From a virus: DNA of 61,953 bases. The position numbers and the translations under genes were made by a program. The notes under the pieces are model-generated. The model worked only from the letters and a program-made list of their open reading frames with translations. It ran no database searches and had not been told where the DNA came from. This document shows, in pieces, positions 16,940 to 51,245 of this stretch. The stretch lies in the IMG/VR virus record IMGVR_UViG_3300045988_087611. One strand, written 5' to 3'. Each line of letters starts with the position of its first letter. Position 1 is the stretch's first letter.

Positions 16940-16960
16940 TGATAGCGTGGAGGATTGGAT

Positions 16961-18670
16961 ATGAGCAACGAAACCACCACACCGGCCCAGCCAAGGGCCA
17001 CCACACCGGACGGCTTTAAGGTCTGGTGCAGCTTCGACGAACTCGTGGAGCTGGACAGCTTGAAGCCAAATCCCAGAAATCCCAATAAGCACCCGGTGGC
17101 CCAGCTTGAGCTCCTGGCGAATATTATCAAGAAGGGCGGCTGGCGGGAGAAGATCACCGTCAGCCGCCGCAGCGGTTTTATCGTCAAGGGACATGCCAGG
17201 CGGGAGGCCGGGAAGATGGCCGGAGGGCAGTATGCTCCCGTCGAATGGCAGGACTACGCCACCGAGGCCGACGAGATGGCCGACCTGATTGCCGATAACC
17301 GGATCGCCGAGCTGGCGGTTCTGGATGAAGAGGCCATCACCGAGCTGCTGGCCGAGCTGGAGGCCAACACCGACGGCATAGACCCGGAAATGAGCGGCTT
17401 CACCGCCGAGCAGATCAGGGAAATGGTGGAGAAGGCGCAGAAGGGGGCAGACGAGGCAGAGCAGCAGGCAGCCCGCCTCACCCTTCAGCAGAAGTTCCTG
17501 ATCCCGCCATTCACCGTCCTGGACGCCCGTGGCGGCTTCTGGTCGGAGCGGAAGAAGGCATGGAAGGCCCTGGGCATCCGCTCCGAGATGGGCCGGGGCG
17601 CCGACGACTGCAAGACCGAGGGCGGCCTTACCTTCGCCCGGAGCTCCCAGCCGCCGGCAGTCTACCAGGCCAAGAATGACTACGAGGCCAAGGTGGGCAA
17701 GAAGATCTCCTGGGAGGAGTTTGCCAACCTGTTCCCCGAGGTCATGGCCCAGGGCGGCACCTCCATTTTTGACCCGGTGCTCTGTGAGGTAGCCTATCGG
17801 TGGTTCTGCCCACAGGGCGGCTCCATCATTGACCCCTTCGCCGGCGGGAGCGTCCGGGGCATCGTGGCAGCCCTTACCGGCCGGCGCTATACCGGCGTTG
17901 ATTTATCCGGCCGGCAAATCGAGGCTAACACCCAAAATTGGGAGGAAATCTCTCACGAAAGCGTCTTAGAGGACAGTGAGTGCCCCGTAACTCCTCCCAA
18001 CTGGATCAACGGCGACAGCAGCCACATTGAAGAGCTGGCCCCGGGAGATTATGACCTATTCTTTACCTGTCCCCCCTATGCAGACCTGGAGGTTTATAGC
18101 GACAAGCCGGAAGACCTCTCCAACAAGGATTATCCGGAGTTCCTGGAGCTCTACCGGGGCATTATCCGAAAGACGGCGGCCATGCTGAAGCCAAACCGCT
18201 TCGCCTGCATCGTTGTGGGGGATGTGCGGGACAGCCGGGGCTTCTACCACAACTTCGTGAGTGACACCATCACGGCCTTCCGGGACGCCGGCATGGACTT
18301 CTACAATGAAGCCATTCTGATTATGCCTTTTGGCAGCCTGCCCATCCGGGCCGGCAAGCAGTTTGCCAGTGGCCGGAAGCTGGGCAAGGCCCACCAGAAT
18401 GTCCTTGTGTTCTGCAACGGAGACCCGGCCCAAAGTGGAGCCTTCGACCTGGAGACCCCGGAGGGGTACGCCGGGGACATTGGCCGCTATCTGGCCGCCG
18501 GCGCCGGCAAGCTGGGTCAGGAACACCAAAAGGTGCTGGTCTTCTCCAAAGGCGATCCCGCCCAGGCATCGGCCGATATTGGAGTGCCTGAGGACACGGA
18601 GGCCCTGGACAGCACCGACAACGCCCGGTTGCTGAAGGAGCTCCTGGGCAGCGACTATCCAGACGAATAA
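16961..18670 (+). CDS. ParB-like nuclease domain fused to a DNA methyltransferase
   Basis: N-terminus LKPNPRNPNKHP...GHARREA (ParB N-domain). AdoMet motif IIDPFAGGSVRG. Catalytic FTCPPY. ATG at 16961 after GGAGGA. Confidence 0.8.
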   Translation: MSNETTTPAQPRATTPDGFKVWCSFDELVELDSLKPNPRNPNKHPVAQLELLANIIKKGGWREKITVSRRSGFIVKGHARREAGKMAGGQYAPVEWQDYATEADEMADLIADNRIAELAVLDEEAITELLAELEANTDGIDPEMSGFTAEQIREMVEKAQKGADEAEQQAARLTLQQKFLIPPFTVLDARGGFWSERKKAWKALGIRSEMGRGADDCKTEGGLTFARSSQPPAVYQAKNDYEAKVGKKISWEEFANLFPEVMAQGGTSIFDPVLCEVAYRWFCPQGGSIIDPFAGGSVRGIVAALTGRRYTGVDLSGRQIEANTQNWEEISHESVLEDSECPVTPPNWINGDSSHIEELAPGDYDLFFTCPPYADLEVYSDKPEDLSNKDYPEFLELYRGIIRKTAAMLKPNRFACIVVGDVRDSRGFYHNFVSDTITAFRDAGMDFYNEAILIMPFGSLPIRAGKQFASGRKLGKAHQNVLVFCNGDPAQSGAFDLETPEGYAGDIGRYLAAGAGKLGQEHQKVLVFSKGDPAQASADIGVPEDTEALDSTDNARLLKELLGSDYPDE

Positions 18671-18732: not shown

Positions 18733-19362
18733 TTGAGTAGGCCGAAGAAGGCCGCCCCGGCCTATAACGGGGAGATGTGGGAGCAGATGATCGGAGAGAG
18801 CACCCAGCAGTACGAGCGGTTCTGCCTTTATCGGGATATGCGTTATAAGCCCCCTGACAAGGAGAAAGACCCTCCGAAGCTCGACCTCACCAGCCGGCGA
18901 AGCATCCGGGGCGTGGCGGAGCGCCTGGGCATGGCCCGCCAGACGCTGGAGAGCTGGAGCTCTGCCTTCCACTGGCGGGAGCGGTGCGAAGCATACGACG
19001 CCTATATCCTCGGGCGGCTGCGTGAGAAGAACGAAGCCGACATCCTGAAGATGCGGGAAACCCATGCTTCCTTGGCAAATCAGATGTTGAAGAAGGCGAC
19101 CAGGCGCCTTCTGACCCTCAAAGACGAGGAGATCACCGCCGCCGACATCGTGCGCCTGGTCGATGTAGGTGTGAAAATAGAGCGGTTGAGCCGTGGAGAG
19201 AGTACCGAGCGCCAGGAGATCACCGGGGAGGCCAAAGTCCACCACAGCGGCACCCTGGACGTGACAGCGGCAGGCGGTCTCGACCTCTCCGGGCTTTCCG
19301 ACGAGGAGCTGGGCCAGCTTGAGCAGCTATTGGGCAAGCTACATCCAGAGCCCAGCGTTTGA
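18733..19362 (+). CDS. terS: Terminase small subunit
   Basis: TTG start after AGGAAGGAGGAG. HTH-like SIRGVAERLGMARQTLESWSSAFHW. It lies directly upstream of terL. Confidence 0.65.
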   Translation: MSRPKKAAPAYNGEMWEQMIGESTQQYERFCLYRDMRYKPPDKEKDPPKLDLTSRRSIRGVAERLGMARQTLESWSSAFHWRERCEAYDAYILGRLREKNEADILKMRETHASLANQMLKKATRRLLTLKDEEITAADIVRLVDVGVKIERLSRGESTERQEITGEAKVHHSGTLDVTAAGGLDLSGLSDEELGQLEQLLGKLHPEPSV

Positions 19363-20818
19363 CCCGGAGGCGCTGCAAGCCGCCATCCGTAAAGAGAAGG
19401 CGGAGCGCAGCTTATCCGATTTCATCCGCCAGGCGTGGCCGGTGATCGAACCAGGCACAGAGTACATCGAGAACTGGCACACTGACCTTATCAGCGAATA
19501 CCTCCAGGCTGTGAACCTGGGACAGATCCACCGCCTGATCGTCAACATCCCGCCCCGGCACATGAAGTCCATCCACGTCACCGTCTGCTATCCTGTGTGG
19601 ACGTGGCTGCGGGCGCCGGCCAAGCGGTTCATCAAGGTTTCTTACAGCGACGCCCTCTCCCGGAAGCACAATATCCTTTCCCGTGATATTATCCGCTCCC
19701 CCTGGTATCAAGGGAACTGGAGCGATAGATTTAGCCTGAAGGACGATGTGAACCGGCAGAACGAGTTCCGCAACGACCACCAGGGCATGATGATGTCTAC
19801 CTCCGTCGGCGGCTCTCTGACCGGCGAAGGCGGCGACGTTATCATCATCGACGACCCGCAGAACCCCCTCATGGCGAACAGCGAAACGGAGCGACAGAAC
19901 AGCATCAACTTCTTTAAGAACACGCTCCAGACCCGTCTAAATGACCCCAAGAACGGCGCCATTATTATCATCATGCAGCGCCTTCACGAAAGCGATCTGA
20001 CCGGCTACGTCCTGTCGGAAGACCTGGGGTACACCCACCTGTGCCTCCCGGCGGAAGCCGAGGAGCGCAGCACCATCATCTATCCCATCAGCAAGAAGAA
20101 GGTCGTCCGGGAGCCGGGCGACCTTCTGAACCCCGCCCGCTTCGATAAGGAAGTCCTGGACAGCCTGAAGCGGAGCATGGGCTCGGCGCAGTACGCCGGC
20201 CAGTTCCAGCAGACTCCGGCTCCGGCGGAGGGTATCATATTCAAGCGTGAATGGATGAACAACACCTTCACGGCAAAGAGCCTCCCACACCAGAGCATAA
20301 TAATCCAATCCTGGGATATGGCCTTCACCAAAAGCGAAGGCAGCGCCAAGGTGGCCGGCTTCGTCCTCTCCCGGGCCGGGAGCAATATCTATATCCGTGA
20401 CCTGGAGAACGACAAAATGACCTTCACGGAGAGCGTTGCGGCCGTCCGCCGCCTCTCTGGCAAGTGGCCGAAGGCCCGCGCCAAGGTGGTGGAGAACAAG
20501 GCCAATGGGCCTGCCATCGTTGACCTGCTGAAGAAGGAAATCCCCGGCATGGTGGAGTTCAACCCCAAGGGCAGCAAGGAGGAGCGGGCCATATCCGTCA
20601 CTCCCTATTTTGAGGCCGGAAACATCTGGTTCCCAGACCCCAAGGATGCCCCCTGGGTGAACGACCTGATCCGTGACCTTCTGATTTTCCCCAAGGGCAC
20701 CTTCAAGGACACCACAGACGCGCTGGTGCAGGGTATCCTCTACCTGATGGATAAGCCCACCACCTCCGCCCCGCCCAAGGACATCACCACCACCCGGAAG
20801 AGCTACTGGATGAAATAA
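19319..20818 (+). CDS. terL: Terminase large subunit
   Basis: 499-aa ORF. ATPase region LIVNIPPRHMKS, Walker B-like VIIIDDP, C-terminal nuclease-type region. Start (TTG 19319) uncertain. Confidence 0.8.
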   Translation: MSSYWASYIQSPAFDPEALQAAIRKEKAERSLSDFIRQAWPVIEPGTEYIENWHTDLISEYLQAVNLGQIHRLIVNIPPRHMKSIHVTVCYPVWTWLRAPAKRFIKVSYSDALSRKHNILSRDIIRSPWYQGNWSDRFSLKDDVNRQNEFRNDHQGMMMSTSVGGSLTGEGGDVIIIDDPQNPLMANSETERQNSINFFKNTLQTRLNDPKNGAIIIIMQRLHESDLTGYVLSEDLGYTHLCLPAEAEERSTIIYPISKKKVVREPGDLLNPARFDKEVLDSLKRSMGSAQYAGQFQQTPAPAEGIIFKREWMNNTFTAKSLPHQSIIIQSWDMAFTKSEGSAKVAGFVLSRAGSNIYIRDLENDKMTFTESVAAVRRLSGKWPKARAKVVENKANGPAIVDLLKKEIPGMVEFNPKGSKEERAISVTPYFEAGNIWFPDPKDAPWVNDLIRDLLIFPKGTFKDTTDALVQGILYLMDKPTTSAPPKDITTTRKSYWMK

Positions 20819-21749: not shown

Positions 21750-21973
21750 CCGCGAGAGAAACTATCGAGGCCGAGCTGAAGCAGATGGTCTTTGACCTTC
21801 TCCATGAGCAGGATATGGACGATCTGAGGGACGGCGAGAAGAAAGCCCTGCCCCATATCTCCGCCGCCGAGCAGGCCCACATCCTGGACAGCACCCAGTC
21901 CACCGCCTGGAGGAATGAGATCGAAAAGGCGGCCACGTTCAGCCGCCTTCTGAAAGGAGATGCAGAGCCGTGA
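21746..21973 (+). CDS. Hypothetical acidic protein
   Basis: 75-aa ORF, ATGA-coupled. Confidence 0.4.
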   Translation: MTARETIEAELKQMVFDLLHEQDMDDLRDGEKKALPHISAAEQAHILDSTQSTAWRNEIEKAATFSRLLKGDAEP

Positions 21974-22728
21974 ATGGGCTCCAGGTATTCAGCTATAATG
22001 ACCACAGTGTGAGAACTGTTAAGCAGGATGGCCAGCCCTGGTGGGTGCTGGCCGATGTGTGCGATGTGCTGGAGCTGAAAAACCCCGCAAGAGTGGCCGC
22101 ACGTTTGGACGAGGACGAAAAGAATACCCTAACTTTTGTGAAGGGTATTCCTGGCCCCGGAAATCCGACTATGACCATCATCAACGAACCGGGGCTATAT
22201 TCGGTGATCCTGCGGAGCAACAAGCCGGAGGCGAAAGCCTTTAAGCGGTGGATTACCCATGAAGTTCTCCCCACCATTCGCGCCACGGGGGCCTATGGAG
22301 CCCCGCAGGCAGCCCCCGCAATAACTGATGCCTTGGAGCGCATGACGGGTGTTGTGGAGGCGCTGGCGAGCCGCATCGAGGCGCTGGAACATCAGGCGCA
22401 GGAAGTCCCCCGGGCAGAATTGATTGCCCCCCCTGACCTCAGCATTCCGCGAACTACCCGACGCCACTGGATGAGGAAATTCAACGAGAAGCTGGAAACG
22501 CTGGAATATAACTTCAATCTCTCAAAGCCGGCCATTCTTCGCCGCCTCTACGATATGGTAGAAAAGAAGTTTGACACCGTGCTGGACGAAGAGCGGTTCC
22601 GATATATTGAGAAAACCGGCCAGGAAGAGTGCTCTGTACTCGAAATTATCTATCGAAATGAGCAGTATAGAGCCTATTTCCAGCACATTATCGACCAAAA
22701 GCTGGGGCCGGAATATTGGGATTGGTGA
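21970..22728 (+). CDS. Bro-N domain antirepressor-like protein
   Basis: LQVFSYNDHSVRTVKQDGQPWWVLADVCDVLEL...INEPGLYSVILRSNKPEAKAFKRWITHEVLPTIR is a canonical BRO N-terminal domain. Confidence 0.8.
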   Translation: MNGLQVFSYNDHSVRTVKQDGQPWWVLADVCDVLELKNPARVAARLDEDEKNTLTFVKGIPGPGNPTMTIINEPGLYSVILRSNKPEAKAFKRWITHEVLPTIRATGAYGAPQAAPAITDALERMTGVVEALASRIEALEHQAQEVPRAELIAPPDLSIPRTTRRHWMRKFNEKLETLEYNFNLSKPAILRRLYDMVEKKFDTVLDEERFRYIEKTGQEECSVLEIIYRNEQYRAYFQHIIDQKLGPEYWDW

Positions 22729-23265: not shown

Positions 23266-23292
23266 ACGGCCGCCGCTTGGTGGCCGTTTTCT
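23266..23292 (+). terminator. Terminator-like hairpin with a U-tract 13 nt before the portal RBS
   Basis: ACGGCC-N10-GGCCGT followed by TTTTCTT. Confidence 0.45.
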
Positions 23293-23318
23293 TATACGCT
23301 GGAGAAAGGAGGAAAAGC

Positions 23319-24728
23319 GTGGCTACTTTGCGTGAAATCGGCCGGATAGGACAAAACCGCTGGGGCGGTGTCTTCCGGGAAGAGTTCTTGACGGAGCTCC
23401 AGGGCCGCCGGGGAGTCCAGGCGTTCCGAGAGATGTCGGAGAATGACGACATCGTGGGCGCTATCCTATTCGCCATTGAGATGCTGATTCGGCAGGCCGT
23501 GTGGGAAGTGCAGCCAGCCGGGGACACGGCCAAGGACAAGGAGGCCGCCGAGTTTGTGGAGAGCTGCATGGATGATATGGCCGACACCTGGACGGACACC
23601 ATCGCGGAGATCCTGTCCTTCCTGACCTATGGCTGGAGCGCCCACGAAATCGTCTACAAGCGCCGGGTCGGCCGGAGCAACGACCCCCGGCTCCAGAGCA
23701 AGTATGGGGACGGCCTAATTGGCTGGCAGAAGCTGCCCATCCGGGCCCAGGAAACCCTCTATGAGTGGCGCTATGACGCCCGGGACAACCTCATGGGCCT
23801 GGTGCAGATGCCACCCCCGGACTATGGCCTGATTGAGATACCTGTGGAAAAGCTGCTGCTCTTCCGCACGAAGAGCCGGAAGGGCAACCCGGAGGGGCGC
23901 AGCATCCTCCGCAACGCCTACCGGGATTGGTACTTCAAGCGGCGCATCCAGGAAATAGAGGGCATCGGCATTGAGCGCGACCTCGCCGGCCTCCCGGTGA
24001 TCACCGCGCCGGAGGGGTTGGACATCTGGGACACAGAAGACCCGGACATGGTGACGGCCAGAGCCCAGGCGGAGCGGATTGTGCAGAACGTCCGGCGGGA
24101 CAGCTTGGAGGGGCTGGTAAAGCCCTCAGGCTGGACATTGGAGCTGCTGTCCACCGGCGGCCGCCGGCAGTTTGACACCAACAGCATCATCGACCGCTAC
24201 GACAGCCGCATTGCTATGACGGTGCTGGCGGACTTCGTGCTGCTGGGGCACCAGAACGTGGGCAGTTTTGCCCTGTCCAGCGACAAGACCAAGCTCTTCG
24301 GCACGGCTATCGGGGCTTACCTGGATATTATCTGTGAGGTCTTCAACAACCAGGCAATCCCCCGGCTCATTGACCTGAACGGCGAGCACTTCCGGGGTAT
24401 CACCGATTATCCGGAAATGACCCACGGCGACGTGGAGAGCCCCAACCTCGCCACCCTGGGCACCTTCCTGCGGGAAGTCACCGGCGCCGGCATCCTAATC
24501 CCGGATGAAGGCGTGGAGGACTATGTACGCCAGGCCGCCAACCTCCCGGAGCGCATGGAAGACTACGGCACACAGCTCAACCAGCAGAACCGGGAGCGGC
24601 AACAGCCGCCCAAAGGCCAATCTATGAAGCCAGCCGCCGGCCAGGAGGAAGACCAGGATGGAGAACTCCCGGACGATGAAAAAGACGCCGTAGAGGCCGC
24701 CAAACGGCGCCTCGGGAGGTATGATTGA
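23319..24728 (+). CDS. Portal protein (Mu gp29/DUF935-like)
   Basis: GTG at 23319 after AAAGGAGG. About 470 aa, located upstream of the MuF gene. Acidic C-terminal tail. Confidence 0.75.
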   Translation: MATLREIGRIGQNRWGGVFREEFLTELQGRRGVQAFREMSENDDIVGAILFAIEMLIRQAVWEVQPAGDTAKDKEAAEFVESCMDDMADTWTDTIAEILSFLTYGWSAHEIVYKRRVGRSNDPRLQSKYGDGLIGWQKLPIRAQETLYEWRYDARDNLMGLVQMPPPDYGLIEIPVEKLLLFRTKSRKGNPEGRSILRNAYRDWYFKRRIQEIEGIGIERDLAGLPVITAPEGLDIWDTEDPDMVTARAQAERIVQNVRRDSLEGLVKPSGWTLELLSTGGRRQFDTNSIIDRYDSRIAMTVLADFVLLGHQNVGSFALSSDKTKLFGTAIGAYLDIICEVFNNQAIPRLIDLNGEHFRGITDYPEMTHGDVESPNLATLGTFLREVTGAGILIPDEGVEDYVRQAANLPERMEDYGTQLNQQNRERQQPPKGQSMKPAAGQEEDQDGELPDDEKDAVEAAKRRLGRYD

Positions 24729-27700
24729 TGCGGAAACTCGCTGTGATGAAACGGGCCCGAGTGCGTCCCATCCTAAAGGCCAAGAAGAGCCAGGGCGCCC
24801 AGGATGTCCTTGACCGCCTCAACGCCTTCCTCAACGCTGCGGAGCCCGAGCCGGTCTACTGGCTTACCAGGCTGTGGAACGACCAGCAGCAGGCCGTGAC
24901 CTACAAGGAGCTGCGGGAGGCTATCCAGCAGGGCTATATCGACGAGAAGACCCTGGCGGCCTGGCAGGCCGACTACGCCAACTTCGTCAATGAGCACCTG
25001 AAGGGCATCTGGCAGGATGCGGCCAAAGCCGCAAACGCCGCCCTGGAGGCCCAGCACCCCGATTTCTTCTATGACCCTATGGGAGAAGGCATCCAGAATT
25101 GGACGGCCACCCACGGCGCCGAATGGGTAACGAATATCTCGGACGACCAGCGGGAGGCAATCACCAGCATGATCGACCGGGCTACGACCGGGGCATGGAC
25201 AGGCGACGAGCTAGCCCGTGCCATCCGCCCCCTAATCGGGCTCACTAAGCCCCAGGCTCTCGCCAACCTGAACTACTACGAGCACCTGAAGGCGACCCTG
25301 CTGGCGAATAACCCAACCATGAAGGAGGCCACGGCCGCCAAAGCCGCCCGGGACGCAGCGGCCAAGTACGCCGCCAAGCAGCACCGGCAGCGGGCCTATA
25401 CCATCGCCACCACAGAACTCGCCTACGCCTACAACAAGGGCGCCGACGATGGAATCATCCAGGCCCAGCAGCAGGGCTTCATCGGCAAGGTGAAGCGCGT
25501 CTGGAGCACCGCCTACGACGACGGTGTGTGTGAGATATGCTCGGCCCTGGAAGGCCAGGAAATCGACATGGATGGGGAGTTTGACTTCAAGGGAAAGAGC
25601 CTATATGCCGGCCAGAAGAAGACACCGCCGGCACACCCGCGCTGTCGGTGCGCCGTGGAATATCGGGAGGTGGAGCCACCAGAGGTAGAGCAGCAAGAGC
25701 CGGAACAGCCCCCTACCACCTGGGGGGATCCCCCGGAGCAAGACCTCCCGGAGCCGCCGTCTCCTGTGGCTGCCCCAAGTATTCCCATCCCGTCCGGCAT
25801 GACCTATCAGGGCAAGCCAAATCTGGGCGGCACCGGGGAGATGCACCTATACCGGGACGGCGCCGGCCAGGAGTGGCTATTCAAGCCGGCCCAGACCAAG
25901 AGCGGCTCCCCTGAAGCCTTCCGGGCCTATGTCCAGGAGGCCGGCTATAAGGTGCAGTACATCGTTGACCCAGATACGGCCGTTCCTGTCGGCGTCGGGG
26001 AGCTGGGTGGCAAGTTCGGCGCCTTCCAGAAGCGGATCACCACCATCGGCAGCGCCACGGACTATAAGGCATGGCAGCACAGCGGCGGCCACCTCCCAGA
26101 CGGCTCCGCGCAGCAGTTCCAGCGGGAGCATGTCACTGACTGGCTCCTGGGGAACTACGACAGCCACGGCGGGAACTTCGTCACCGACAGCTCCGGCCGT
26201 CTGGTGGGCATCGACAAGGAGCAGTCCTTCAAGTACATCGGCAAGGACGGCGCCCAGGCCATGAGCTACGCCTTCCACCCCAACAAGAGCTACGGGGAGA
26301 CGGAGCCCATCTATAACACCATCTATCGCCGGTTCGCCAAAGGTGAGCTTGACCTTGACCTCCAAGACACCCTTGCTTATATCAAGCGCGTGGAGGCCAT
26401 TCCTGACAGCGAATATCGGGAGATATTCAGGGACTATGCCGAGGCCCTGCATGGCAAGGGCAAAGAGGCCGAGGCTCTGCTGGACGCCATTGTGGAGCGG
26501 AAGGACAACCTTCGGGAGACCTACCGGGCCTTTTACTCCGACCTCCTCACCGAGCGCACCGGCCGCAAGCAGATATTTACCTGGGCCGACGAAGTGGCCC
26601 AGCAAGCCAAGCAGCCCCTCGCGGCTGTCACCCATTCCGCTGATGCTCTGAAGAAGATGAATGTGGCGGAGCTGAAGCAGCTCGCCAAGCAGAAGGGAAT
26701 CCCGTACTACAACAAGTTCAACAAGAAGGAGCTGATCGAGGCCATCTCCGACCCGGTGAAGGCCGTGGAGATCAGCGCCAAGACCAAGGCCAAGCTGCTG
26801 AACCTGGAGGCCACTCGCCCCGAGCGCCTCGGCCGGACAACGGAGAAACCGCCCCGGCCACCCCGCACCGGCGCAGTTGACGCCGGCGACCTGTTTCAAG
26901 ACTTCGGCCAGATCCCGCCGCAGCGCATCGGCGTCGCGGTATCCAGCGACGAGGGCATGGTGGAGGGCCTGAATCTGACCGCCCGGAAAGTCAACCTGGA
27001 CGGTCAGGATGTCTATGAAATCACCGGGAAGCTGGCCGAAAGCACCTGGTCGCAGACCTGGGACACCCTGAAGAAGCAAAGCAAGGTAAAGCAGCTAACC
27101 TTCGAGCAGGCAGACGATACCCTCGCCCTGCTGGCCTCCCGGCCAATCAATATGCACGGGGTAGAAATCAAGGCCCGCACCATGGAGGATTCCGGCGGCA
27201 CCTTCCAGCTCTATGTTCACAACGGCTCCCAGCAGTACAACGCCTGGAAGGGCTTCTTCCGGCTTCGGGTGCCGGCTACCGGGAACGGAGCAGCCGACGC
27301 CAAAGCGGCCAAAAATCTCCTTGACCGGGCCGGCCTTTCCGGCCTGGCCTCTACTCCGACAGCGGAGGCCGAGGCGATATTCAAGAAGAGCCGGCTCCTC
27401 TGGCAACATGCTCCCGGGCGGATGAAAGAGCTGAAGGGGTTGCAAGGCGGCGCTTTGGAGAGTACACTAAACACAATCCTTCAGGAAGAGGGCATCGACC
27501 CGGGCAGAGCAGAGCACATGGTCATGCGGAAGGTGTTCGACGGCTATCAGACCCTTGTTGAGGAGGGCATCAGCGCCGAGTACCAGAAAGCCGGCCTGAA
27601 ATATCTATGGGCCGGCGTGCGAAGGCCGGAGGCCCTTGTCGGAATTCTGAATGGGAAGGGTTTCATGTCTACCAACACCCGCTGCCTGTATGGAATGGAC

Positions 27701-28147
27701 TTCACCGGGGCAAGCCCGGGGGATGATATGAGAACCGGCGGAAGCGACAGCGTCTTCACCCGGATAGGCGTCAAAATGAAGAGCGGCGATCAGCCCCGCT
27801 TCGATGACAGCTATCTCGGTGGTTATTACCGGGTCATCATCGACCCGAAGGAGCTGGAGCGCACCGACTGGTACGCATACACCTTCGACAACTTCGGCAC
27901 CACGGATGAAGGGGAGCTCCTTGGCCGGAAAAGGGCCCTGGAATTCATTGATTATTTGGCTACCAGTTGGAAGGCAAGCAACGAGGTCATGTTCCGGCAC
28001 GGCATACCGAAGGAGCACTTCACCGGGATCATGTGCCCCAATGAGGCGAGGCGGGCCGACCTCCTAAAACAGTTGAAGGACGCGGGCATCACCGAGGTAA
28101 ACGGGGTTCCGATTGAAGATTTCGTGAAAGTGGGGAATGAGATATGA
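24728..28147 (+). CDS. Giant MuF/SPP1-gp7-family head protein fused to a HipA/PI3-4-kinase-like domain, a HeH (Rho-N/SAP-like) motif and an unassigned ~400-aa C-terminal domain
   Basis: MuF core ...VKRVWSTAYDDGVCEICSALEG...PPAHPRCRCAV. Pro-rich linker. Kinase-like LGGTGEMHLY / EWLFKP / LGNYDSHGGNFV / LVGIDKEQSF. HeH MNVAELKQLAKQKGIPYYNKFNKKELIEAI. Confidence 0.8.
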   Translation: MRKLAVMKRARVRPILKAKKSQGAQDVLDRLNAFLNAAEPEPVYWLTRLWNDQQQAVTYKELREAIQQGYIDEKTLAAWQADYANFVNEHLKGIWQDAAKAANAALEAQHPDFFYDPMGEGIQNWTATHGAEWVTNISDDQREAITSMIDRATTGAWTGDELARAIRPLIGLTKPQALANLNYYEHLKATLLANNPTMKEATAAKAARDAAAKYAAKQHRQRAYTIATTELAYAYNKGADDGIIQAQQQGFIGKVKRVWSTAYDDGVCEICSALEGQEIDMDGEFDFKGKSLYAGQKKTPPAHPRCRCAVEYREVEPPEVEQQEPEQPPTTWGDPPEQDLPEPPSPVAAPSIPIPSGMTYQGKPNLGGTGEMHLYRDGAGQEWLFKPAQTKSGSPEAFRAYVQEAGYKVQYIVDPDTAVPVGVGELGGKFGAFQKRITTIGSATDYKAWQHSGGHLPDGSAQQFQREHVTDWLLGNYDSHGGNFVTDSSGRLVGIDKEQSFKYIGKDGAQAMSYAFHPNKSYGETEPIYNTIYRRFAKGELDLDLQDTLAYIKRVEAIPDSEYREIFRDYAEALHGKGKEAEALLDAIVERKDNLRETYRAFYSDLLTERTGRKQIFTWADEVAQQAKQPLAAVTHSADALKKMNVAELKQLAKQKGIPYYNKFNKKELIEAISDPVKAVEISAKTKAKLLNLEATRPERLGRTTEKPPRPPRTGAVDAGDLFQDFGQIPPQRIGVAVSSDEGMVEGLNLTARKVNLDGQDVYEITGKLAESTWSQTWDTLKKQSKVKQLTFEQADDTLALLASRPINMHGVEIKARTMEDSGGTFQLYVHNGSQQYNAWKGFFRLRVPATGNGAADAKAAKNLLDRAGLSGLASTPTAEAEAIFKKSRLLWQHAPGRMKELKGLQGGALESTLNTILQEEGIDPGRAEHMVMRKVFDGYQTLVEEGISAEYQKAGLKYLWAGVRRPEALVGILNGKGFMSTNTRCLYGMDFTGASPGDDMRTGGSDSVFTRIGVKMKSGDQPRFDDSYLGGYYRVIIDPKELERTDWYAYTFDNFGTTDEGELLGRKRALEFIDYLATSWKASNEVMFRHGIPKEHFTGIMCPNEARRADLLKQLKDAGITEVNGVPIEDFVKVGNEI

Positions 28148-28509
28148 GCATTGACCGCCGCAAAGCCTATTACTACCGCTGGACGGGAGAACCGAAGTTC
28201 TCCGGCATCGCCGTAGATGTCCATGTCCACACCGGGACGGGCGGGAAAGAGCTCCGCTTCATTTCCCCGCCAGAGCGGCCCCATTCCCAGCCCGGCGCCG
28301 TGCTCCGGGAGACCGCCGGCGGCTTCGTCTTCCGCAGCGACGGTTTCATGCCCGGGGAATGGGTATTCAAAGAGCTTACCATCGAGGAGTTCCGCCGCTG
28401 GATTGCAAAGCGCGTCGGGATGGGAGAGGCCATCGCCTCCAAAATCACGACCACCGATGACCTTCACGAGTGGTATCGGAAGACCTTCCACTTCCCAACT
28501 GAAGACTGA
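28144..28509 (+). CDS. Hypothetical protein, translationally coupled to the MuF fusion
   Basis: ATGA overlap with the MuF gene stop. 121 aa. Confidence 0.5.
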   Translation: MSIDRRKAYYYRWTGEPKFSGIAVDVHVHTGTGGKELRFISPPERPHSQPGAVLRETAGGFVFRSDGFMPGEWVFKELTIEEFRRWIAKRVGMGEAIASKITTTDDLHEWYRKTFHFPTED

Positions 28510-28567: not shown

Positions 28568-29029
28568 ATGTTCACATTCAATGAGCTGGCCGGCCGGCAG
28601 CCCGCCGACGTGAAAAAGACCGCCGGCACCATCACCGGCCGGTTTTCCATCAAAAAGGCCGACGAGGATAAACACCTGGCCTTCGGGTGGGCCTATGTGT
28701 CCCAGGATGAAGAGGGGCAGCAGACTGAAGATTGGTCTGGCGACCAACTGGAGCCGTCCGAGTTGGAGCAGGCGGCCTATGGGTTCGTGGAGCTCTACCG
28801 TGAAGGCGGAGAGATGCATGAAAGGGGCGGCTGCGCCGTCCTGGTGGAGAGTATGGTCTTCACCGCAGAGAAACAGGCCGCCCTTGGAATCCCGGAGGGC
28901 ACTCTCCCCGTCGGCTGGTGGATCGGCTTTAAGGTCACCGACGAGGATGTGTGGGCCAAGGTAAAGGACGGCACCTACCCCATGTTCTCCATTGAAGGCA
29001 CAGCCATCCGAGAGGAAACCGAAGAATAA
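28568..29029 (+). CDS. XkdF-like protein (putative prohead protease family S78_2)
   Basis: KKADEDKHLAFGWAYV...GEMHE...VESMVF...GWWIGFKVTDEDVWAKVKDGTYPMFSIEG matches the XkdF pattern. Confidence 0.75.
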   Translation: MFTFNELAGRQPADVKKTAGTITGRFSIKKADEDKHLAFGWAYVSQDEEGQQTEDWSGDQLEPSELEQAAYGFVELYREGGEMHERGGCAVLVESMVFTAEKQAALGIPEGTLPVGWWIGFKVTDEDVWAKVKDGTYPMFSIEGTAIREETEE

Positions 29030-29140
29030 GCGTGGTATCTTCCAAAACGGAAAGAACCACCCACATGAGATAAGCCGGTGGGCAGCGGACAACCGCTGTC
29101 CACCTGTTTATATACACGCCCAAGAAAGGAGGAAAGCAGC

Positions 29141-30340
29141 GTGCCCACAAAACTGAAGGGCCTGGAAGTGACGAAGGTAGACTTTGTTGATGCCGGGGAC
29201 AACAAGCGGGCCGATGTCGTTCTGTTCAAGCGAAAGGACGGAGAGGCCCAGGAGCCCACCCACCAGGAGGAGCCCCAGGGGGTGGTGAAGCGCCTGCTCA
29301 CCAGGATTGCCAAGGCCGTCGGCCTTACCGATGCCGAAGTGGACGAAGCGGTGACCGCCATCCAGAAAGATGCCGTCACCTTTGACGAGAAGGTGGCACA
29401 GAGGCAGCGCCGGAAGACAGCGGATGAAATCTGGGATTTCTGCTGGATGCTCCAGGATAGCCTTTGCTCTATCTTCTGGGACGAGGCCCTCACCGACACC
29501 GAGAAGCAATCCAAAATGAATGAGAGCCTCACCGAGTTTACCACGGCAACCCAGGGAGCTATCCCCAAATGGGCTGGAGGTGTCCCCAGCGTAATCGCCA
29601 AGTCCGCCATGCCCGAACTTACCCCAGAGCGCCTGGCGTTTGCCAAGCAGACCCGCGACCGCCTCAACGACATGATCGCCAAGGCGGAAGACCCAGAGCC
29701 GGCCAATGAGCCGGAGCCCACTAATCCGAAATCCGAGAAAGGAGAACCTGAAGACATGAAGATTGACAAGAGCAAGCTGACCGCCGAGGAGCTGGCCGCC
29801 CTCGATGCTATCGAGAAGAAGGCCGGCATTCCCGACGAGCCCCCCGCCGCCCAGCCCACCGGGGAGCCCGCGCCCACCACAAAGGCCGCCCCCGCCGCCG
29901 AGCCCCAGGAGGGCGACGAGGACATCTACAAGGGCCTGCATCCCGCTGTGAAGGCCGAGCTGGAGCGGCTGCGCAAGGCCGCCGATGCCGCCGAGGAGCG
30001 GGAGCTCCAGGAGGTTGCCAAGAAGTATGAGATCATCGGCAAGAAGGCCGAGGAGCTGGTGCCCACACTGAAGAGCCTGAAGGCCGCCGGCGGAGACGCC
30101 TACAACCAGATGATCGCCGTGCTGGACGCCAGCGTGGCTGCCGTGGAGAAGTCCGGCCTCTTTTCCGAGGTAGGTAAGTCCGGCGGTGCTGGTACTACCA
30201 GCGGCGGTGCCTGGGCCGAGATCGAGAAGCACGCCGAGGCTATTCAGAAGGCCGCACCCACCATGACCTGGGCCCAGGCCGTGGATAAGGCGTGTGAGCA
30301 GCACCCCGACCTCGTGCATGAGTACGAGAGCGGACGATAA
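29141..30340 (+). CDS. Scaffolding protein
   Basis: GTG at 29141 after AAAGGAGGAAA. Acidic, helical and Ala/Glu-rich. Located between the protease-like gene and the capsid genes. Confidence 0.55.
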   Translation: MPTKLKGLEVTKVDFVDAGDNKRADVVLFKRKDGEAQEPTHQEEPQGVVKRLLTRIAKAVGLTDAEVDEAVTAIQKDAVTFDEKVAQRQRRKTADEIWDFCWMLQDSLCSIFWDEALTDTEKQSKMNESLTEFTTATQGAIPKWAGGVPSVIAKSAMPELTPERLAFAKQTRDRLNDMIAKAEDPEPANEPEPTNPKSEKGEPEDMKIDKSKLTAEELAALDAIEKKAGIPDEPPAAQPTGEPAPTTKAAPAAEPQEGDEDIYKGLHPAVKAELERLRKAADAAEERELQEVAKKYEIIGKKAEELVPTLKSLKAAGGDAYNQMIAVLDASVAAVEKSGLFSEVGKSGGAGTTSGGAWAEIEKHAEAIQKAAPTMTWAQAVDKACEQHPDLVHEYESGR

Positions 30341-30356
30341 GAGAGGAGGAACGATT

Positions 30357-30761
30357 ATGAGCTACTTCGGTTCCATCATCAATAACAGTGCAACCATCAT
30401 CGCCAAAGCATCCGCCAAGATTACCGACGGCGCCTTCCTGGCCGCCACGCTCACCGAGAACGGTGTAGCGGTAGCCAAAGCCAGCGAGACCCCTATCGGC
30501 ATCATGGTCGCCGAGACTGGCACCGTTGAGGCCGGCGAGGAGGTCACCATCCAGGTCAAGGACATTGGGCTGGCAAAGGTCGGCGCCGCTGTGAACGCCG
30601 GCGACATTCTGGCCGCCGATGCCAACGGCAAACTGATTAAGGCCACCAATGGCGCCTTTGCTGTTGCGGTTGCCCTGGACACGGCCACCGCCGCTGACCA
30701 GGTCATCCAGGTACAGATCAGCAAGCCCGGCTTTACCGCTGCCGCCGGAGTAGGCGGCTGA
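30357..30761 (+). CDS. DUF2190-like head decoration/cement protein
   Basis: ATG at 30357 after GAGAGGAGGA. Gly/Ala/Val-rich beta protein immediately upstream of the major capsid gene. Confidence 0.55.
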   Translation: MSYFGSIINNSATIIAKASAKITDGAFLAATLTENGVAVAKASETPIGIMVAETGTVEAGEEVTIQVKDIGLAKVGAAVNAGDILAADANGKLIKATNGAFAVAVALDTATAADQVIQVQISKPGFTAAAGVGG

Positions 30762-30781: not shown

Positions 30782-31810
30782 ATGAACATGAACGGCAGAA
30801 GCACCACCGCAGGCATCCAGGCCGACATCGCCAAGGGCTGGAAGCCGAACAATTACCTCACCAATATGTCTATGGCCTATTTCGCCCAGGCGGGCGACTA
30901 TGTGGCCCCCAGCATCTTCCCCATCTGCCCTGTGCCCCTGGCCTCCAGCTACTACTACAAGTTCAGCAAGGGCGACCTGGCCCGGGACAACGTGCGGCGC
31001 AAGCCCCCCTACGGCAAGGTAACTCCCGCCATCATGGGGCAGACGGACGACACCTACAAGTGCGAAGTGGATCAGATTATCGTGGGCATCGACCAGATCG
31101 AGGCCCTCAACTTCCAGCGCAGCCGCGCCCCCGGTGTGGCTGACCCCCGCCGGGCCAAGGTTCGTTTTGCATCCGAGCAGATGCTCATCCACCTGGACAT
31201 CCTGTTTGCCAGCGGCTTTTTCAAGGCCGGTGTGTGGGGTCAGGAGTGGGCAGGCGTCACCTCCAGCGCCTCCGGCAAGCAGTTCCTGAAGTTCTCTGAT
31301 GCCAACTTTGACCCTGTCCACTTCTTTGACGAGCGGATCAAGGACATCAAGCAGAGCGGCCGCCGGAAGCCCAACCGTCTGGCCCTCGGCTATGACGCCT
31401 ATCTGGCTCTGAAGAACCACCCCGATCTGCTGGAGCGGGTGAAGTACACCGGCACCACCGCCAACCCCGCCAATGTGACCCCCGCCGTCCTGGCGCAGCT
31501 CTTTGGCGTTGAGCAGGTCAAGGTTCTGGAGAGCACCTATAACGCCGGTGGCATCGGCGAGGAGAATATGCAGTTTATCTGCGACAGCAAGGGCGCTCTC
31601 CTCTGCTATGCCACTCCCAGCCCCGCCATTGACGAGCCGTCCGCCGGCTACATCTTCACCTGGGATATGCTGGGCAACGGAGCCTGGACGGCCTTCGACC
31701 AGTTCGAGGGGGAGAACGGCACTCACAGCGAGTTTGTGGAGGGCCTCATGTCCACCGATATGCGTAAGACCGCCGATGACCTGGCGATCTACATGAAGGA
31801 CTGTGTGTGA
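30782..31810 (+). CDS. Major capsid protein (lambda gpE-like family)
   Basis: 342 aa. Assigned by position after the scaffold and decoration genes, plus the N-terminal YLTNMSMAYFAQ..YVAPSIFP pattern. Confidence 0.75.
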   Translation: MNMNGRSTTAGIQADIAKGWKPNNYLTNMSMAYFAQAGDYVAPSIFPICPVPLASSYYYKFSKGDLARDNVRRKPPYGKVTPAIMGQTDDTYKCEVDQIIVGIDQIEALNFQRSRAPGVADPRRAKVRFASEQMLIHLDILFASGFFKAGVWGQEWAGVTSSASGKQFLKFSDANFDPVHFFDERIKDIKQSGRRKPNRLALGYDAYLALKNHPDLLERVKYTGTTANPANVTPAVLAQLFGVEQVKVLESTYNAGGIGEENMQFICDSKGALLCYATPSPAIDEPSAGYIFTWDMLGNGAWTAFDQFEGENGTHSEFVEGLMSTDMRKTADDLAIYMKDCV

Positions 31811-49850: not shown

Positions 49851-50069
49851 TGCGTTGCGGGGTCACATGGAGTAGCGAGAGTGAAAGACGACCCACGCAA
49901 AAGGAGAAATGCTTCCCTGGGTGCAAATCCCTAAAACTGCCCTCTGATGCCCTTGCACGGACGCTGCTTGCATGGCGGGGCGATATGCCTATCCCCGTTT
50001 CATGTGCCGGGGCAAAGCAGATTAGACGGCATCCTACACCACATCTGTACGGAGGTGCGAATAACTATT
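49851..50069 (+). ncRNA. TR-RT spacer, likely structured part of the DGR RNA
   Basis: Bulged 9-bp stem across 49856-49899 and hairpin CGGGG-N12-CCCCG at ~49975-49996. No plausible ORF. Confidence 0.45.
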
Positions 50070-51245
50070 ATGACAAGCGAGCAGCGCCGAGAGGCGCGAT
50101 ACCAGCGAAGGAAAGCAAAGCGGCAGGCACGTCGGATCGCCCGGAGCGCGGCGGTCGGTGGTCTCCAGGATGTCTTTACCTACCGGAAGATGTTCTTCTA
50201 TGGGCTGAAATGCTGTAACGGGGTGCGCTGGAAGCAGAGCACCCAAAACTTTGAAAACCATCTGTTCTCCGGGACAGCCCGCCGGAGGCGGGAAATCCTG
50301 TCTGGAACATGGAAACCCATGAAGTGCAGCCATTTCACCCTGCGGGAACGTGGCAAGGTGCGGCCCATCGACGCCCCACATATCACAGACCGACAAATCC
50401 ACAAAGTTCTGTGCAACGAAGTTCTGATACCTCTCTATGGCCCCAGCATGATCTATGACAACGGGGCTTCTCAAAAGAAGAAGGGCCTGCATTGGGCCTA
50501 TGATCGCCTGGCGGAGCAGCTTCGGTGGCATTACCGAAGATTCGGCCGGGCCGGTGGAGTGTTCCTCCTAGACCTGAAGGGGTTTTTTCCAAATGCCCCG
50601 CACCCGGCGCTCTATGAACGGCATCGGCAATTCATCCTCGACCCTGGAGTTCGGGCCCTGGCAGACAAGATCATCGCCACCTCCCCGTGCCCTGTGCCTG
50701 GGCGTGGGATGCCTCTCGGCGTGGAACCGTCCCAGCAGGAAATGGTTGCGCTCCCCAGCAGCATTGACAACTGGATCAAGTGCCAGGCCGGCGTCCATGT
50801 GGCCGGCCATTACATGGATGATTACTATATCGTCCTGCCGGACATTGAGGAACTGAAGAAGCTGGCCCGGGAGGTTGTGCGCCGGTTTGAGGCTATGGGC
50901 ATTCGGGTAAACAAGAAGAAATGCAAGATTATCCCGCTCACCAAGCCCTTCCGTTTCTGCAAGGTGCGCTACACCATGACGGAGAGCGGTCACATCAAGA
51001 AAAATGGTTGCCGGGACGGCATCAAGCGGAGCCGACGGAAGCTCAAATTTTTCCAGAGAGAGGTTTCCGCCGGACGGCGCACACTGGCCGATGTCGCCGA
51101 GTTCATGCAATCCCAGCGATCCTATTACAACAACTTTGACGATCATGGGCGGCTGCTCCGCCTGGAGCGGCTGTCCTACGCCATTTTTGGAGGTGCTTTA
51201 TGTTCAAAATCATCAAAGCCAGCAGCGGGGAAAGCCTCGGAATGA
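50070..51245 (+). CDS. DGR reverse transcriptase
   Basis: ATG at 50070 inside ORF 49947..51245. Motifs LGVEPSQ ((I/L)GxxxSQ, the DGR hallmark) and HYMDDYYIV (YxDD). Confidence 0.9.
   Translation: MTSEQRREARYQRRKAKRQARRIARSAAVGGLQDVFTYRKMFFYGLKCCNGVRWKQSTQNFENHLFSGTARRRREILSGTWKPMKCSHFTLRERGKVRPIDAPHITDRQIHKVLCNEVLIPLYGPSMIYDNGASQKKKGLHWAYDRLAEQLRWHYRRFGRAGGVFLLDLKGFFPNAPHPALYERHRQFILDPGVRALADKIIATSPCPVPGRGMPLGVEPSQQEMVALPSSIDNWIKCQAGVHVAGHYMDDYYIVLPDIEELKKLAREVVRRFEAMGIRVNKKKCKIIPLTKPFRFCKVRYTMTESGHIKKNGCRDGIKRSRRKLKFFQREVSAGRRTLADVAEFMQSQRSYYNNFDDHGRLLRLERLSYAIFGGALCSKSSKPAAGKASE

Follow-up and report, generated by a model that had tools for sequence, protein, structure and literature searches.

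A single protein in the gut-bacterial phage DNA analyzed here (the window, 61,953 nt) joins a MuF head morphogenesis domain to an atypical protein-kinase-like domain and a C-terminal ADP-ribosyltransferase (ART)-fold domain, and its gene is followed by a conserved small partner gene. We consider it probable, at roughly 60%, that this fusion is a MuF minor head protein extended into a multi-enzyme cargo that acts on the host after injection. The features of the locus, with residues counted from the ATG at 24728, are as follows.

19319-20818, large terminase (head module)
23277-24728, portal (head module), directly before the fusion gene
24728-28147, + strand, whole fusion gene: MuF, kinase, HeH, beta domain, helical linker, ART (ORF; >120 homologues)
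24728-25687, + strand, MuF/SPP1-gp7-type head morphogenesis domain, residues 1-320 (Pfam, PHROG)
25688-25789, + strand, Pro/Glu-rich linker, residues 321-354 (sequence reading; variable in the alignment consensus)
25790-26611, + strand, atypical protein-kinase-like domain, residues 355-628 (AF2 model, Foldseek, residue conservation)
26627-26755, + strand, Rho-N/SAP-type helix-extended-helix (HeH) motif, a predicted nucleic-acid binder, residues 634-676 (Pfam Rho_N)
26900-27283, + strand, beta-rich domain, residues 725-852 (AF2 model, 8 strands)
27284-27517, + strand, helical linker domain, residues 853-930 (helices in the AF2 model; co-occurs with the ART domain)
27518-28144, + strand, ADP-ribosyltransferase-fold domain, DarT-like, residues 931-1139 (AF2 model, Foldseek)
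28144-28509, + strand, partner gene, 121 aa; its ATG overlaps the fusion stop (ATGA)
30294-30761, scaffold (head module), 3′ of the fusion gene
30782-31810, major head protein (head module), after the scaffold gene

The fusion gene is a single uninterrupted ORF of 1,139 codons from the ATG at 24728, in a frame open from 24725. GGGAGG lies 8 nt 5′ of this ATG, and the start overlaps the stop of the portal gene (TGATG). The residue numbers of a preliminary description of this DNA equal the ATG-based numbers plus 1. More than 120 full-length homologues (43 to 98% identity) have the same length and order of parts. The head-module gene order seen in the window recurs elsewhere, as in a Dysosmobacter prophage; loci L001 and L007 have it. 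A megablast search of the fusion gene against 50,697 phage records gave zero matches. Searches of the PDB sequences with the fusion protein or its family profile returned only the Rho-N motif and noise, and no peptidase family in Pfam, PHROG, or NCBIfam matched the protein. NCBIfam and PADLOC returned nothing for the kinase or the ART, so that a defense-system reading is unsupported.

At the N terminus, the MuF assignment of the preliminary description was borne out by Pfam Phage_Mu_F (residues 218-310, E = 1.1e-8, 36.2 bits against a cut-off of 29.6) and by PHROG head morphogenesis families spanning residues 13-316 (E = 9e-37). This part contains a CxxC...HPxCxC motif at 267-310, in which C268, C271, H303, C306, and C308 are invariant in the alignment. 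The Pro-rich linker was likewise found, at residues 321-354, and the proposed Rho-N/SAP-like HeH motif scored above the curated cut-off of Pfam Rho_N (residues 641-673, E = 5.3e-9; MNVAELKQLAKQKGIP at residues 644-659).

The kinase-like domain carries a Gly-rich loop (366-372; LGGTGEMHLY, 366-375), Lys386 (EWLFKP, 382-387), the helix-C Glu404, the loop D478-x-H480-x-x-N483 (LGNYDSHGGNFV, residues 474-485), and a DFG-equivalent D496 (LVGIDKEQSF, 492-501); every kinase motif claimed earlier was found where it had been placed. When the AlphaFold model of residues 340-640, which is of high confidence (pLDDT 93), was searched with Foldseek, kinase-fold structures were returned: there were 394 PDB matches at E ≤ 1e-3, and all 50 of the 50 matches listed were kinases. 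Helicobacter pylori CtkA was the closest by TM-score among the matches listed (0.46 to 0.51), and the best fold neighbors were CtkA and eukaryotic-type kinases. The predicted order of secondary structure matches that of a canonical kinase core: K386 falls on strand 3 and E404 on helix C, while D478 and N483 come after helix E. The catalytic roles of K386, D478, N483, and D496 are assigned from motif order and secondary structure rather than from superposition. In an alignment of 28 sequences, K386, D478, H480, and D496 never vary, and N483 rarely does. Loss of the catalytic loop was looked for among homologues, and its residues are retained in close and distant relatives (among 175 kinase-domain instances, K386 is kept in 168, D478 in 169, N483 in 156, and D496 in 169).

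The domain had been described as HipA/PI3-4-kinase-like; the kinase fold held, whereas a specific kinship to HipA or PI3/4-kinases, for which the profiles stay below threshold, is not established. HipA and the PI3/PI4-kinases share with the fusion a GNxDxHxxN catalytic loop followed by a DFG-equivalent Asp, but the matches are sub-threshold and cover about 45 residues, and the HipA N-terminal domains are absent from the fusion. Pfam PI3_PI4_kinase aligned only to the catalytic loop (residues 461-503; 15.5 bits against a cut-off of 27.1), and HipA_C gave no match to the fusion protein at E ≤ 10. Membership in HipA is unsupported: hhalign against Escherichia coli HipA reached 14% probability over 46 columns, again only the catalytic loop, placing D478/H480/N483 and D496 on the TDGHAKN and YD of HipA. 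A relative, Onyinye gp16, has a sub-threshold HipA_C match (18.2 against 30.5 bits). Against the PDB sequences, the kinase profile matched only the catalytic loops of Fam20B and DNA-PKcs (E = 0.2 to 1; DNA-PKcs about 0.9). Such PDB-sequence matches, of the kinase profile and of the ART profile below, are consistent leads, not proof.

The C terminus, which the preliminary description called effector-sized and unassigned, is now resolved in predicted structures into a beta-rich domain, a helical linker, and a DarT-like ART-fold domain. The beta-rich domain is modeled with a pLDDT of 83 to 97 per 10-residue block (AF2), gave only low-probability Foldseek matches (lipocalin and EagT6-type proteins), and accompanies the ART domain in many homologues. 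For the ART-fold domain (AF2 model, pLDDT 94), the best Foldseek match was DarT1 (8baq; E = 1.6e-4, TM-score of 0.56 on the target), with further matches to Mycobacterium tuberculosis and Thermus DarT, OspC3, and Tpt1 at probabilities up to 1.00. Conserved positions include R985, S996, D1000, R1045, D1047, D1054, and Glu1086, with E1086, R1045, and D1054 retained in 121 of 121 ART instances. E1086 aligns to the catalytic Q-x-E Glu of ScARP in a sub-threshold match (E = 0.8), the only one of the ART profile in the PDB sequences, and it also falls inside a below-cut-off match to Pfam DarT (PF14487; residues 1082-1124 on profile positions 149-193, 11.7 against 22.5 bits). Identity with Tox-ART-HYD2 was rejected, since that clade has Asp where the ART of the fusion has an invariant Glu. 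The DarT1/DarT2 toxins of DarTG systems, the best structural matches, also have one invariant catalytic-type Glu; DarT is a member of a toxin-antitoxin pair, whereas the DarT-like domain here is joined to a virion protein and its putative His position is not conserved. The likely equivalent of the NAD-binding His of H-Y-E enzymes is Ala962, at a site that varies (H in 19, N in 19, S in 16, and A in 13 of 121). No DarG macrodomain or NADAR antitoxin lies next door, and searches of Pfam, PHROG, and the PDB sequences matched nothing to the downstream gene. The Pfam models of kinases and ARTs all score below their cut-offs, so the enzyme class of both domains rests on predicted structure and motif conservation.

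To place the fusion among other phage proteins, we compared the distribution of its modules. Kinase and ART modules recur in 3,231 representative proteins (E ≤ 1e-3), giant phage proteins included; in four giant homologues (1,631 to 3,065 aa), Pfam found no family whatever. Most of the best 150 of the 3,231 representatives carry both modules on one polypeptide, a co-occurrence that is inflated there because ranking by total score favors two-domain proteins. Among the 73 viral loci found via the ART alone, about 60 also have both on one polypeptide. Kinase-less MuF-ART variants exist (P0140, P0143, and P0151). For homologues with only 53% BLASTP coverage (P0104 and similar), the idea of a polymorphic C terminus was dropped, as they share the architecture minus the HeH motif; some of them, such as P0104, have a Pro/Lys-rich linker in its place. 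The kinase-ART family is common in human-gut Clostridia prophages.

The same kinase family occurs in cultured mycobacteriophages, in McProf gp54 and Onyinye gp16, beside a C3/VIP2-type ART; the mycobacteriophage proteins match the kinase model at E = 5.6e-41 and 1.8e-26. In McProf gp54, prophiFVLQ01-1 gp56, and Onyinye gp16, as in the fusion, the kinase is flanked by a capsid-protein domain on one side and a C-terminal ART on the other, and the genes likewise come after the portal gene and before an ORF of 122 to 132 aa. Their ART is of the ADPrib_exo_Tox type (C3/VIP2, R-S-E), whereas that of the fusion is DarT-like, and their small ORFs do not match the partner model. McProf gp54 and prophiFVLQ01-1 gp56 were deposited as "minor capsid and ADP-ribosyltransferase fusion" proteins, an annotation without the kinase domain.

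The conserved partner gene, absent from the preliminary description, follows an ART-ending ORF in 62 of 72 viral loci. Behind distant ART-ending proteins, homologous ORFs are found at the equivalent position (hhalign 92%, E = 5.4e-7), and the gene is retained behind a kinase-less MuF-ART (BLASTP, 5e-13). Loci with another type of ART carry another small ORF at this position. At three viral loci the partner domain forms the N terminus of proteins with RelA_SpoT or Zeta_toxin domains. The partner protein has no Pfam, PHROG, or PDB match, and its database search returned only 32 small unnamed proteins.

From these observations we infer a course of packaging, ejection, enzymatic activity, substrates, and partner function. 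MuF proteins sit at the portal inside the capsid, which makes packaging and exit with the DNA most likely; that so large a MuF extension is packaged and ejected is our assumption. A few copies of the fusion would be packaged per virion and leave with the DNA, carrying four cargo parts: an active atypical kinase-like enzyme, a DNA-binding HeH motif, a beta/helical module, and a DarT-like ART. Once inside the new host, the kinase would consume ATP and the ART NAD+ as they modify host targets, which might be proteins or, in the case of the ART, perhaps nucleic acid. The purpose may be host takeover or counter-defense, comparable to the action of T4 Alt and T7 gp0.7. Alt is an ART that is packaged inside the head and enters the cell along with the DNA, and gp0.7 is a phage kinase whose substrates are host proteins of transcription and translation (both PMC5512222); these belong to other enzyme families with a single activity each, and gp0.7 is expressed early, not packaged. 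The 121-aa partner, translationally coupled to the fusion, would be an accessory subunit specific to the DarT-like type of ART, serving either as an inhibitor or chaperone that restrains the enzyme in the producing cell or as an adaptor that rides along. The variable putative His site (Ala962) and the lack of any Pfam kinase or ART model at cut-off count against the injected-enzyme view.

A close precedent for such cargo is found in the polyvalent phage proteins described by Iyer et al. in 2017 (PMC5512222), which combine several disparate activities on one polypeptide predicted to be injected with the DNA; the fusion likewise has MuF, a kinase fold, HeH, and an ART fold on one head-module polypeptide. 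Among polyvalent-protein parts are kinase domains, including a divergent Ser/Thr/Tyr-kinase-superfamily domain, as well as Rho-N HeH motifs and ARTs; the same study also reported fusions of zeta-toxin kinases to MuF. Compared by description, the conserved Gln434 of the fusion (last N-lobe strand) and its His468-Asp478 spacing fit the polyvalent kinase. That kinase is reported mainly from Verrucomicrobia-Chlamydia and Bacteroidetes prophages, and the polyvalent-protein ARTs are H-Y-D (Tox-ART-HYD2), in contrast to the invariant Glu of the DarT-like domain here. The releasing metallopeptidase, frequent but not obligatory in polyvalent proteins, was not found in the fusion. CtkA (JHP0940) is an autophosphorylating Ser/Thr (and Tyr) kinase whose gene lies on a mobile element and which may be delivered into target cells (PMC5536186); its structures (PDB 3akj, 3akk, and 3akl) share 12 to 15% identity with the fusion kinase without a sequence-level match, and it is a stand-alone protein linked to type IV secretion rather than a virion protein.

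Effectors fused to MuF have been predicted to enter virions and to be injected (PMC5576092; PMC5512222), and the MuF polymorphic toxins (Zhang et al. 2012, PMC3482391; Jamet et al. 2017, PMC5576092) share with the fusion an N-terminal MuF domain, a portal-adjacent gene, C-terminal enzymatic domains, and a small gene directly 3′. The fusion could be such a toxin, with phage particles delivering toxic enzymes that kill nonlysogenic competitors and the partner acting as cognate immunity, as in the model of Jamet et al. A small gene that switches with the ART family and persists without the kinase would suit an immunity gene, and ARTs make up 14% of MuF toxins (PMC5576092). We nevertheless think this unlikely. 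The fusion differs from these toxins in carrying two enzymes, both conserved and not swapped among relatives: kinase and ART are constant within the family (43 to 98% identity), and so the C terminus is not polymorphic within it, although kinase-less MuF-ART variants exist. The partner start overlaps the stop of a late structural gene, so that the partner is probably expressed with the late genes and not in lysogens needing immunity, and a domain that heads RelA_SpoT and Zeta_toxin proteins at three loci would be unusual for an immunity protein. Nowhere in their main text do Jamet et al. (2017, PMC5576092) use the word "kinase."

Instead of working after injection, the enzymes might serve in the producing cell or target components of the phage itself: the DarT-like ART and HeH, for instance, could modify phage DNA during packaging, or the kinase could modify host envelope or assembly proteins late for superinfection exclusion. 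The latter was proposed by Benler et al. (2021, PMC8008677), who describe a late-expressed HipA-like kinase of gut phages, encoded between the genes for the portal and the major capsid protein, and have it act in the producing cell, a reading that counts against injection. That kinase is of the HipA family and comes from five phages of the proposed "Gratiaviridae," in a paper centered on Bacteroidetes phages; compared by description, the accessible text mentions no MuF fusion, ART, or partner gene. The position of the fusion gene among late genes, its DNA-binding HeH motif, and the DNA-base modification carried out by the nearest structural relatives of the ART (PMC11543638) fit such a role as well. 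A MuF fusion in more than 100 homologues is, however, hard to explain for a purely cytoplasmic enzyme, HeH is dispensable in some homologues, and the giant proteins embed the modules in hundreds of unassignable residues, like injected polyvalent proteins (PMC5512222), all of which makes action in the producing cell distinctly unlikely. It is highly improbable that the kinase-like and ART-like regions lack catalytic activity and serve only for structure or binding (e.g., internal head or ejection scaffolds with folds kept for shape): the curated enzyme models all fall below threshold, position 962 is not His, and some giant homologues have tandem kinase copies without Lys and Asp (e.g., P0255, residues 324-578), but all canonical catalytic residues are invariant in the fusion and its close family and are among the best-conserved positions tallied in the 175 kinase and 121 ART instances.

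Returning to a fusion that acts on the host after injection, it is conceivable, though we hold it with little confidence, that kinase, ART, and partner work as a single coupled enzyme system and not as separate pieces of cargo. The joining of one kinase family to two unrelated ART families suggests that phosphorylation and ADP-ribosylation may converge on a single host target or pathway. Such convergence might take the form of phosphorylation-primed or phosphate-linked ADP-ribosylation of a protein or nucleic-acid end, or of a double hit on a defense or transcription factor.

Benler et al. (2021, PMC8008677) count only two characterized phage protein kinases, T7 gp0.7 and 933W Stk, and our literature search found no study of a phage-borne DarT-like ART. 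The preliminary description, which was aware of no described MuF-kinase fusion, overstated the novelty, given the kinases noted in silico in injected polyvalent proteins and the zeta-toxin-MuF fusions (PMC5512222), the head-module kinase likewise noted in silico (PMC8008677), and the mycobacteriophage kinase genes. The family is nonetheless very large, and none of its three distinctive parts (kinase, ART, and partner) has a Pfam model. Since the family also occurs in cultured, genetically tractable mycobacteriophages, where annotation overlooked the kinase, a direct test is possible. The questions opened are whether kinase and ART are coinjected, which targets they meet in the first minutes of infection, and whether they overcome host defenses. 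If the partner is an inhibitor or adaptor, it would represent a new regulatory principle for virion-borne enzymes. If the system is coupled, it would constitute a widespread phage takeover or counter-defense module (3,231 representatives at E ≤ 1e-3, giant virion-type proteins included), whose partner domain may in some phages recruit further toxins (RelA/SpoT and zeta toxin).

On the + strand, a single ORF (24725/24728-28147) encodes a protein of 1139 aa counted from its ATG, here called the fusion, with GGGAGG 8 nt 5′ of that start. The TGA of the portal gene shares bases with the fusion ATG (TGATG, 24726-24730), and the next gene, here called the partner, starts inside the fusion stop; portal, fusion, and partner appear to be three translationally coupled genes. 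The order of genes at this locus is large terminase, Ant-like, portal, fusion, small ORF, S78-type protease-like ORF, 420-aa ORF, scaffold, and major head protein, and the window overall is that of a contractile-tailed (pro)phage. Features of the window are as follows.

16955-18670, +: 571-aa fusion of a ParB-like domain to a DNA methyltransferase, 5′ of the terminase genes
21970-22728, +: anti-repressor (Ant) family gene, inserted between large terminase and portal
24728-28147, +: fusion, 1139 aa
28144-28509, +: partner, 121 aa, start within the fusion stop (ATGA, 28144-28147)
28568-29029, +: 153-aa ORF 3′ of the partner, with head-maturation-protease PHROG matches
29078-30340, +: 420-aa ORF, PHROG 17741
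46383-48794, +: 803-aa ORF in the tail region, with weak peptidase and major-tail PHROG matches
49947-51245, +: reverse-transcriptase ORF (PHROG 1423, E = 1.7e-72), just 3′ of the 803-aa ORF

The ParB-like-methyltransferase gene holds the same position in a Dysosmobacter prophage (L001:2922-4637). This prophage and a second homologous locus, L007, carry size-matched ORFs at the positions of the 153-aa and 420-aa ORFs, and their counterparts of the 153-aa ORF match Peptidase_S78_2. The reverse-transcriptase and 803-aa ORFs may form a diversity-generating retroelement.

More than 120 full-length homologues of the fusion (43 to 98% identity) have the same length, so the gene is no assembly artefact. 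Close relatives were present in metagenome-assembled genomes of Flavonifractor, Christensenellaceae, Dysosmobacter, and Atopobiaceae. Some sequences 88 to 93% identical to the fusion (L084:1501-3888; P0024, 768 aa; P0032, 747 aa) match it only partly or end in unrelated sequence, and appear to be frameshifted or truncated, with the ADP-ribosyltransferase (ART) or the N terminus lost.

A preliminary description, made from the sequence alone, had proposed a MuF domain, a HipA/PI3-4-kinase-like domain, a Rho-N/SAP HeH motif, and an unassigned C terminus. All motifs that it quoted were found on re-reading the sequence: LGGTGEMHLY (366-375), EWLFKP (382-387), LGNYDSHGGNFV (474-485), LVGIDKEQSF (492-501), and the HeH motif from residue 644 (its residue numbering equals ours plus 1). 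Pfam recovered both flanking elements, with Phage_Mu_F at residues 218-310 (36.2 bits against a cut-off of 29.6) and Rho_N at 641-673 (36.3 bits against 24.9). PHROG head-morphogenesis families cover residues 13-316.

To examine the kinase domain, we modeled residues 340-640 with AlphaFold2 from a 61-sequence alignment (mean pLDDT 93, pTM 0.90). With this model, a Foldseek search of the PDB returned 394 matches (E ≤ 1e-3); each of the 50 that were listed is a kinase. Among the matches listed, Helicobacter pylori CtkA had the top TM-score (0.46 to 0.51); Staphylococcus aureus Stk1, RIPK2, Rio2, and the kinase of a lanthipeptide synthetase were also present. The modeled N lobe has the Gly-rich loop between strands 1 and 2, K386 in strand 3, E404 in helix C, and Q434 in the last strand, and the C lobe has D478-x-H480-x-x-N483 past helix E and D496 past strands 7 and 8, a predicted order that fits the canonical kinase core. 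In 175 kinase instances drawn from the best 150 of 3,231 representative homologues, K386 was kept in 168, D478 in 169, N483 in 156, and D496 in 169; position 480 was His in 111 and Lys in 45. In close homologues the residues placed by this predicted order are invariant or nearly so. A kinase fold and a retained catalytic loop, the two points on which the preliminary description had made its kinase reading depend, were thus both found.

The family of this kinase is less readily named. No curated kinase profile scored above threshold on the fusion, the Pfam PI3_PI4_kinase match to the catalytic loop being below it. A diverse profile of the domain, compared with PDB sequences, matched Fam20B and DNA-PKcs alone, in each case at the catalytic loop (E = 0.2 to 1). 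In the profile comparison with Escherichia coli HipA, DWLLGNYDSHGGNF...GIDKEQSF lay opposite QWLIGATDGHAKNF...YDIISAF, with a probability of only 14%. The proposed likeness to HipA and PI3/4-kinases therefore holds for the catalytic loop, which appears to be that of an atypical kinase in the HipA/PI3K style, but is not supported as family membership, and the domain is assignable to neither family.

The C terminus is no longer unassigned, since a model of residues 710-1139 (pLDDT 94) and its Foldseek matches resolve it into three parts.

about 725-852: beta-rich domain
853-930: helical segment
931-1139: alpha/beta domain with an ART fold

The only strong PDB matches were DarT1 (8baq, E = 1.6e-4, TM-score 0.56 normalized to the target), Mycobacterium tuberculosis DarT, and Thermus DarT2, followed by OspC3 and Tpt1; all those listed are ART-fold enzymes. 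Among viral models, uncharacterized proteins matched, including iridovirus 422L and baculovirus ORF32 and ORF30, which may belong to the "ORF28" family of arthropod viruses, linked to DarT by Iyer et al. (2022). Two independent sequence signals, both sub-threshold, also indicate an ART: residues 1082-1124 match the Pfam DarT profile (E = 0.21), and a diverse ART profile hit a single protein among PDB sequences, the guanine-specific ART ScARP, whose catalytic Glu is aligned with Glu1086 of the family (E = 0.8). Across 121 ART instances, E1086, R1045, and D1054 were invariant, and D1000, G989, G1004, D1047, S996, and R985 nearly so. A caveat to this predicted assignment is that the expected histidine position of an H-Y-E motif varies across the family and is Ala962 in the fusion. 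Polyvalent-protein ARTs are of the H-Y-D type, from which the fusion ART differs.

To determine how widely the combination occurs, we searched 1.84 billion proteins with a profile of residues 345-1139, which detected 3,231 representatives at E ≤ 1e-3 (939 at E ≤ 1e-30). In the best 150 of the 3,231, kinase and ART usually form one polypeptide of 1,000 to 6,330 aa, a co-occurrence inflated by ranking on total score. These polypeptides are typically arranged kinase-kinase...ART, ending in the ART; kinase-less MuF-ART proteins, stand-alone kinases, and stand-alone ART modules are also included. Among 73 IMG/VR loci retrieved instead through the C-terminal ART motif, about 60 encode kinase and ART in the same ORF. 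Tandem copies of the kinase occur in giant phage proteins (1,600 to 6,330 aa), the majority of which, among those mapped, have the ART at the C terminus.

P0142: L004:10001-16903
P0163: L006:10001-19198
P0144: L003:844-5739
P0255: 6330 aa

Neither these first three giants nor P0149 had a Pfam match. Genes for ribonucleotide reductase and Ro60/TROVE accompany P0142 and P0163 in phage-like contigs of 59 to 71 kb; for one of the two, DNA polymerase A and ParB are encoded as well (DNA polymerase A in the P0142 contigs). In some first tandem kinase copies, including P0255 residues 324-578, the Lys and both Asp residues (catalytic and DFG-type) have been lost; such copies are likely pseudokinases beside an intact copy.

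Among phage GenBank records, tblastn matched the kinase part alone, in 12 mycobacteriophage records. Two of the encoded proteins were mapped.

McProf gp54, L087:3288-6845: 1185 aa, deposited as [quoted passage not shown]
Onyinye gp16, L088:4461-8483: 1340 aa, deposited as "ADP-ribosyltransferase"

In McProf gp54, a kinase of the fusion's family (E = 5.6e-41) lies between a VG15 capsid domain and an ADPrib_exo_Tox ART; in Onyinye gp16, the same kinase (E = 1.8e-26), which also matches HipA_C weakly, is joined to ADPrib_exo_Tox. The kinase family therefore occurs with two ART families that are unrelated to each other. The GenBank entries record the capsid and ART parts alone, leaving the roughly 250-aa kinase domain unannotated. 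Each gene is followed by a small ORF that the partner model does not recognize; the downstream ORF therefore tracks the type of ART.

Positional counterparts of the partner are ORFs of 116 to 136 aa. They follow the Dysosmobacter homologue (54% identity), a kinase-less MuF-beta-helical-ART protein (BLASTP, 5e-13), and giant kinase-kinase-ART proteins in phage contigs, and the close and distant sets align with an hhalign probability of 92% (E = 5.4e-7). With an iterated model, the partner was detected in 62 of the 72 viral loci evaluable for it (E = 1e-17 to 1e-46), starting −12 to +20 nt relative to the stop of the ART-ending ORF. The 10 loci lacking it are among the more divergent (24 to 36% identity), and in 8 of these no kinase was seen within 3 kb upstream. 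No partner-like neighbor was present beside one bacterial kinase-kinase protein that lacks an ART. The partner, a member of an unnamed family, matched nothing in Pfam, PHROG, or PDB sequences. In three viral loci its domain forms the N terminus of a longer protein of 397 to 464 aa.

L066:3569-4759
L068:3734-5038
L069:3636-5027

The C termini of these proteins match RelA_SpoT in one (E = 1.4e-18) and Zeta_toxin in two (E = 2.4e-19 and 7.2e-13), which suggests that additional effectors can be joined to the partner domain. These fusions, together with coupling to a late gene, disfavor the partner as a simple lysogen-protecting immunity protein; candidate roles are inhibitor or chaperone, or co-packaging adaptor. 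An inter-bacterial toxin with the partner as its immunity protein is an unlikely account of the locus.

Enzyme-carrying MuF or polyvalent virion proteins are an established concept (PMC3482391, PMC5576092, PMC5512222). A divergent kinase in polyvalent/MuF-type proteins has been noted in silico (PMC5512222), and so has a gut-phage gene for a HipA-like kinase that is located between the portal and capsid genes (PMC8008677). In the literature searched, we found no description of the MuF-kinase-HeH-DarT-like-ART architecture, of the repeated joining of this kinase to ARTs of two families, or of the partner gene, and no experimental work on this kinase family.

Taken together, the locus encodes a head-module MuF protein with an intact-looking kinase, an intact-looking ART, and a linked partner gene. 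MuF/gp7 proteins are minor head components of portal-terminase phages, complexed with the portal in few copies per capsid. Most likely, a few copies of the fusion would enter the cell along with the DNA and use ATP and NAD+ to modify host targets; the HeH motif may hold the fusion on DNA. Action of the enzymes in the producer cell is somewhat less plausible still than a toxin-immunity pair, and inert kinase and ART domains are very improbable. MuF-fused effectors are predicted to be injected (PMC5576092, PMC5512222), and T4 Alt and T7 gp0.7 provide precedents for a packaged ART and for host-directed phosphorylation, respectively (PMC5512222). DarT relatives act on DNA bases (PMC11543638) and CtkA and HipA on proteins; the targets of the fusion could be proteins or, for its ART, possibly nucleic acid. 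Through McProf and Onyinye, the kinase-ART fusion is open to direct testing in mycobacteriophages.
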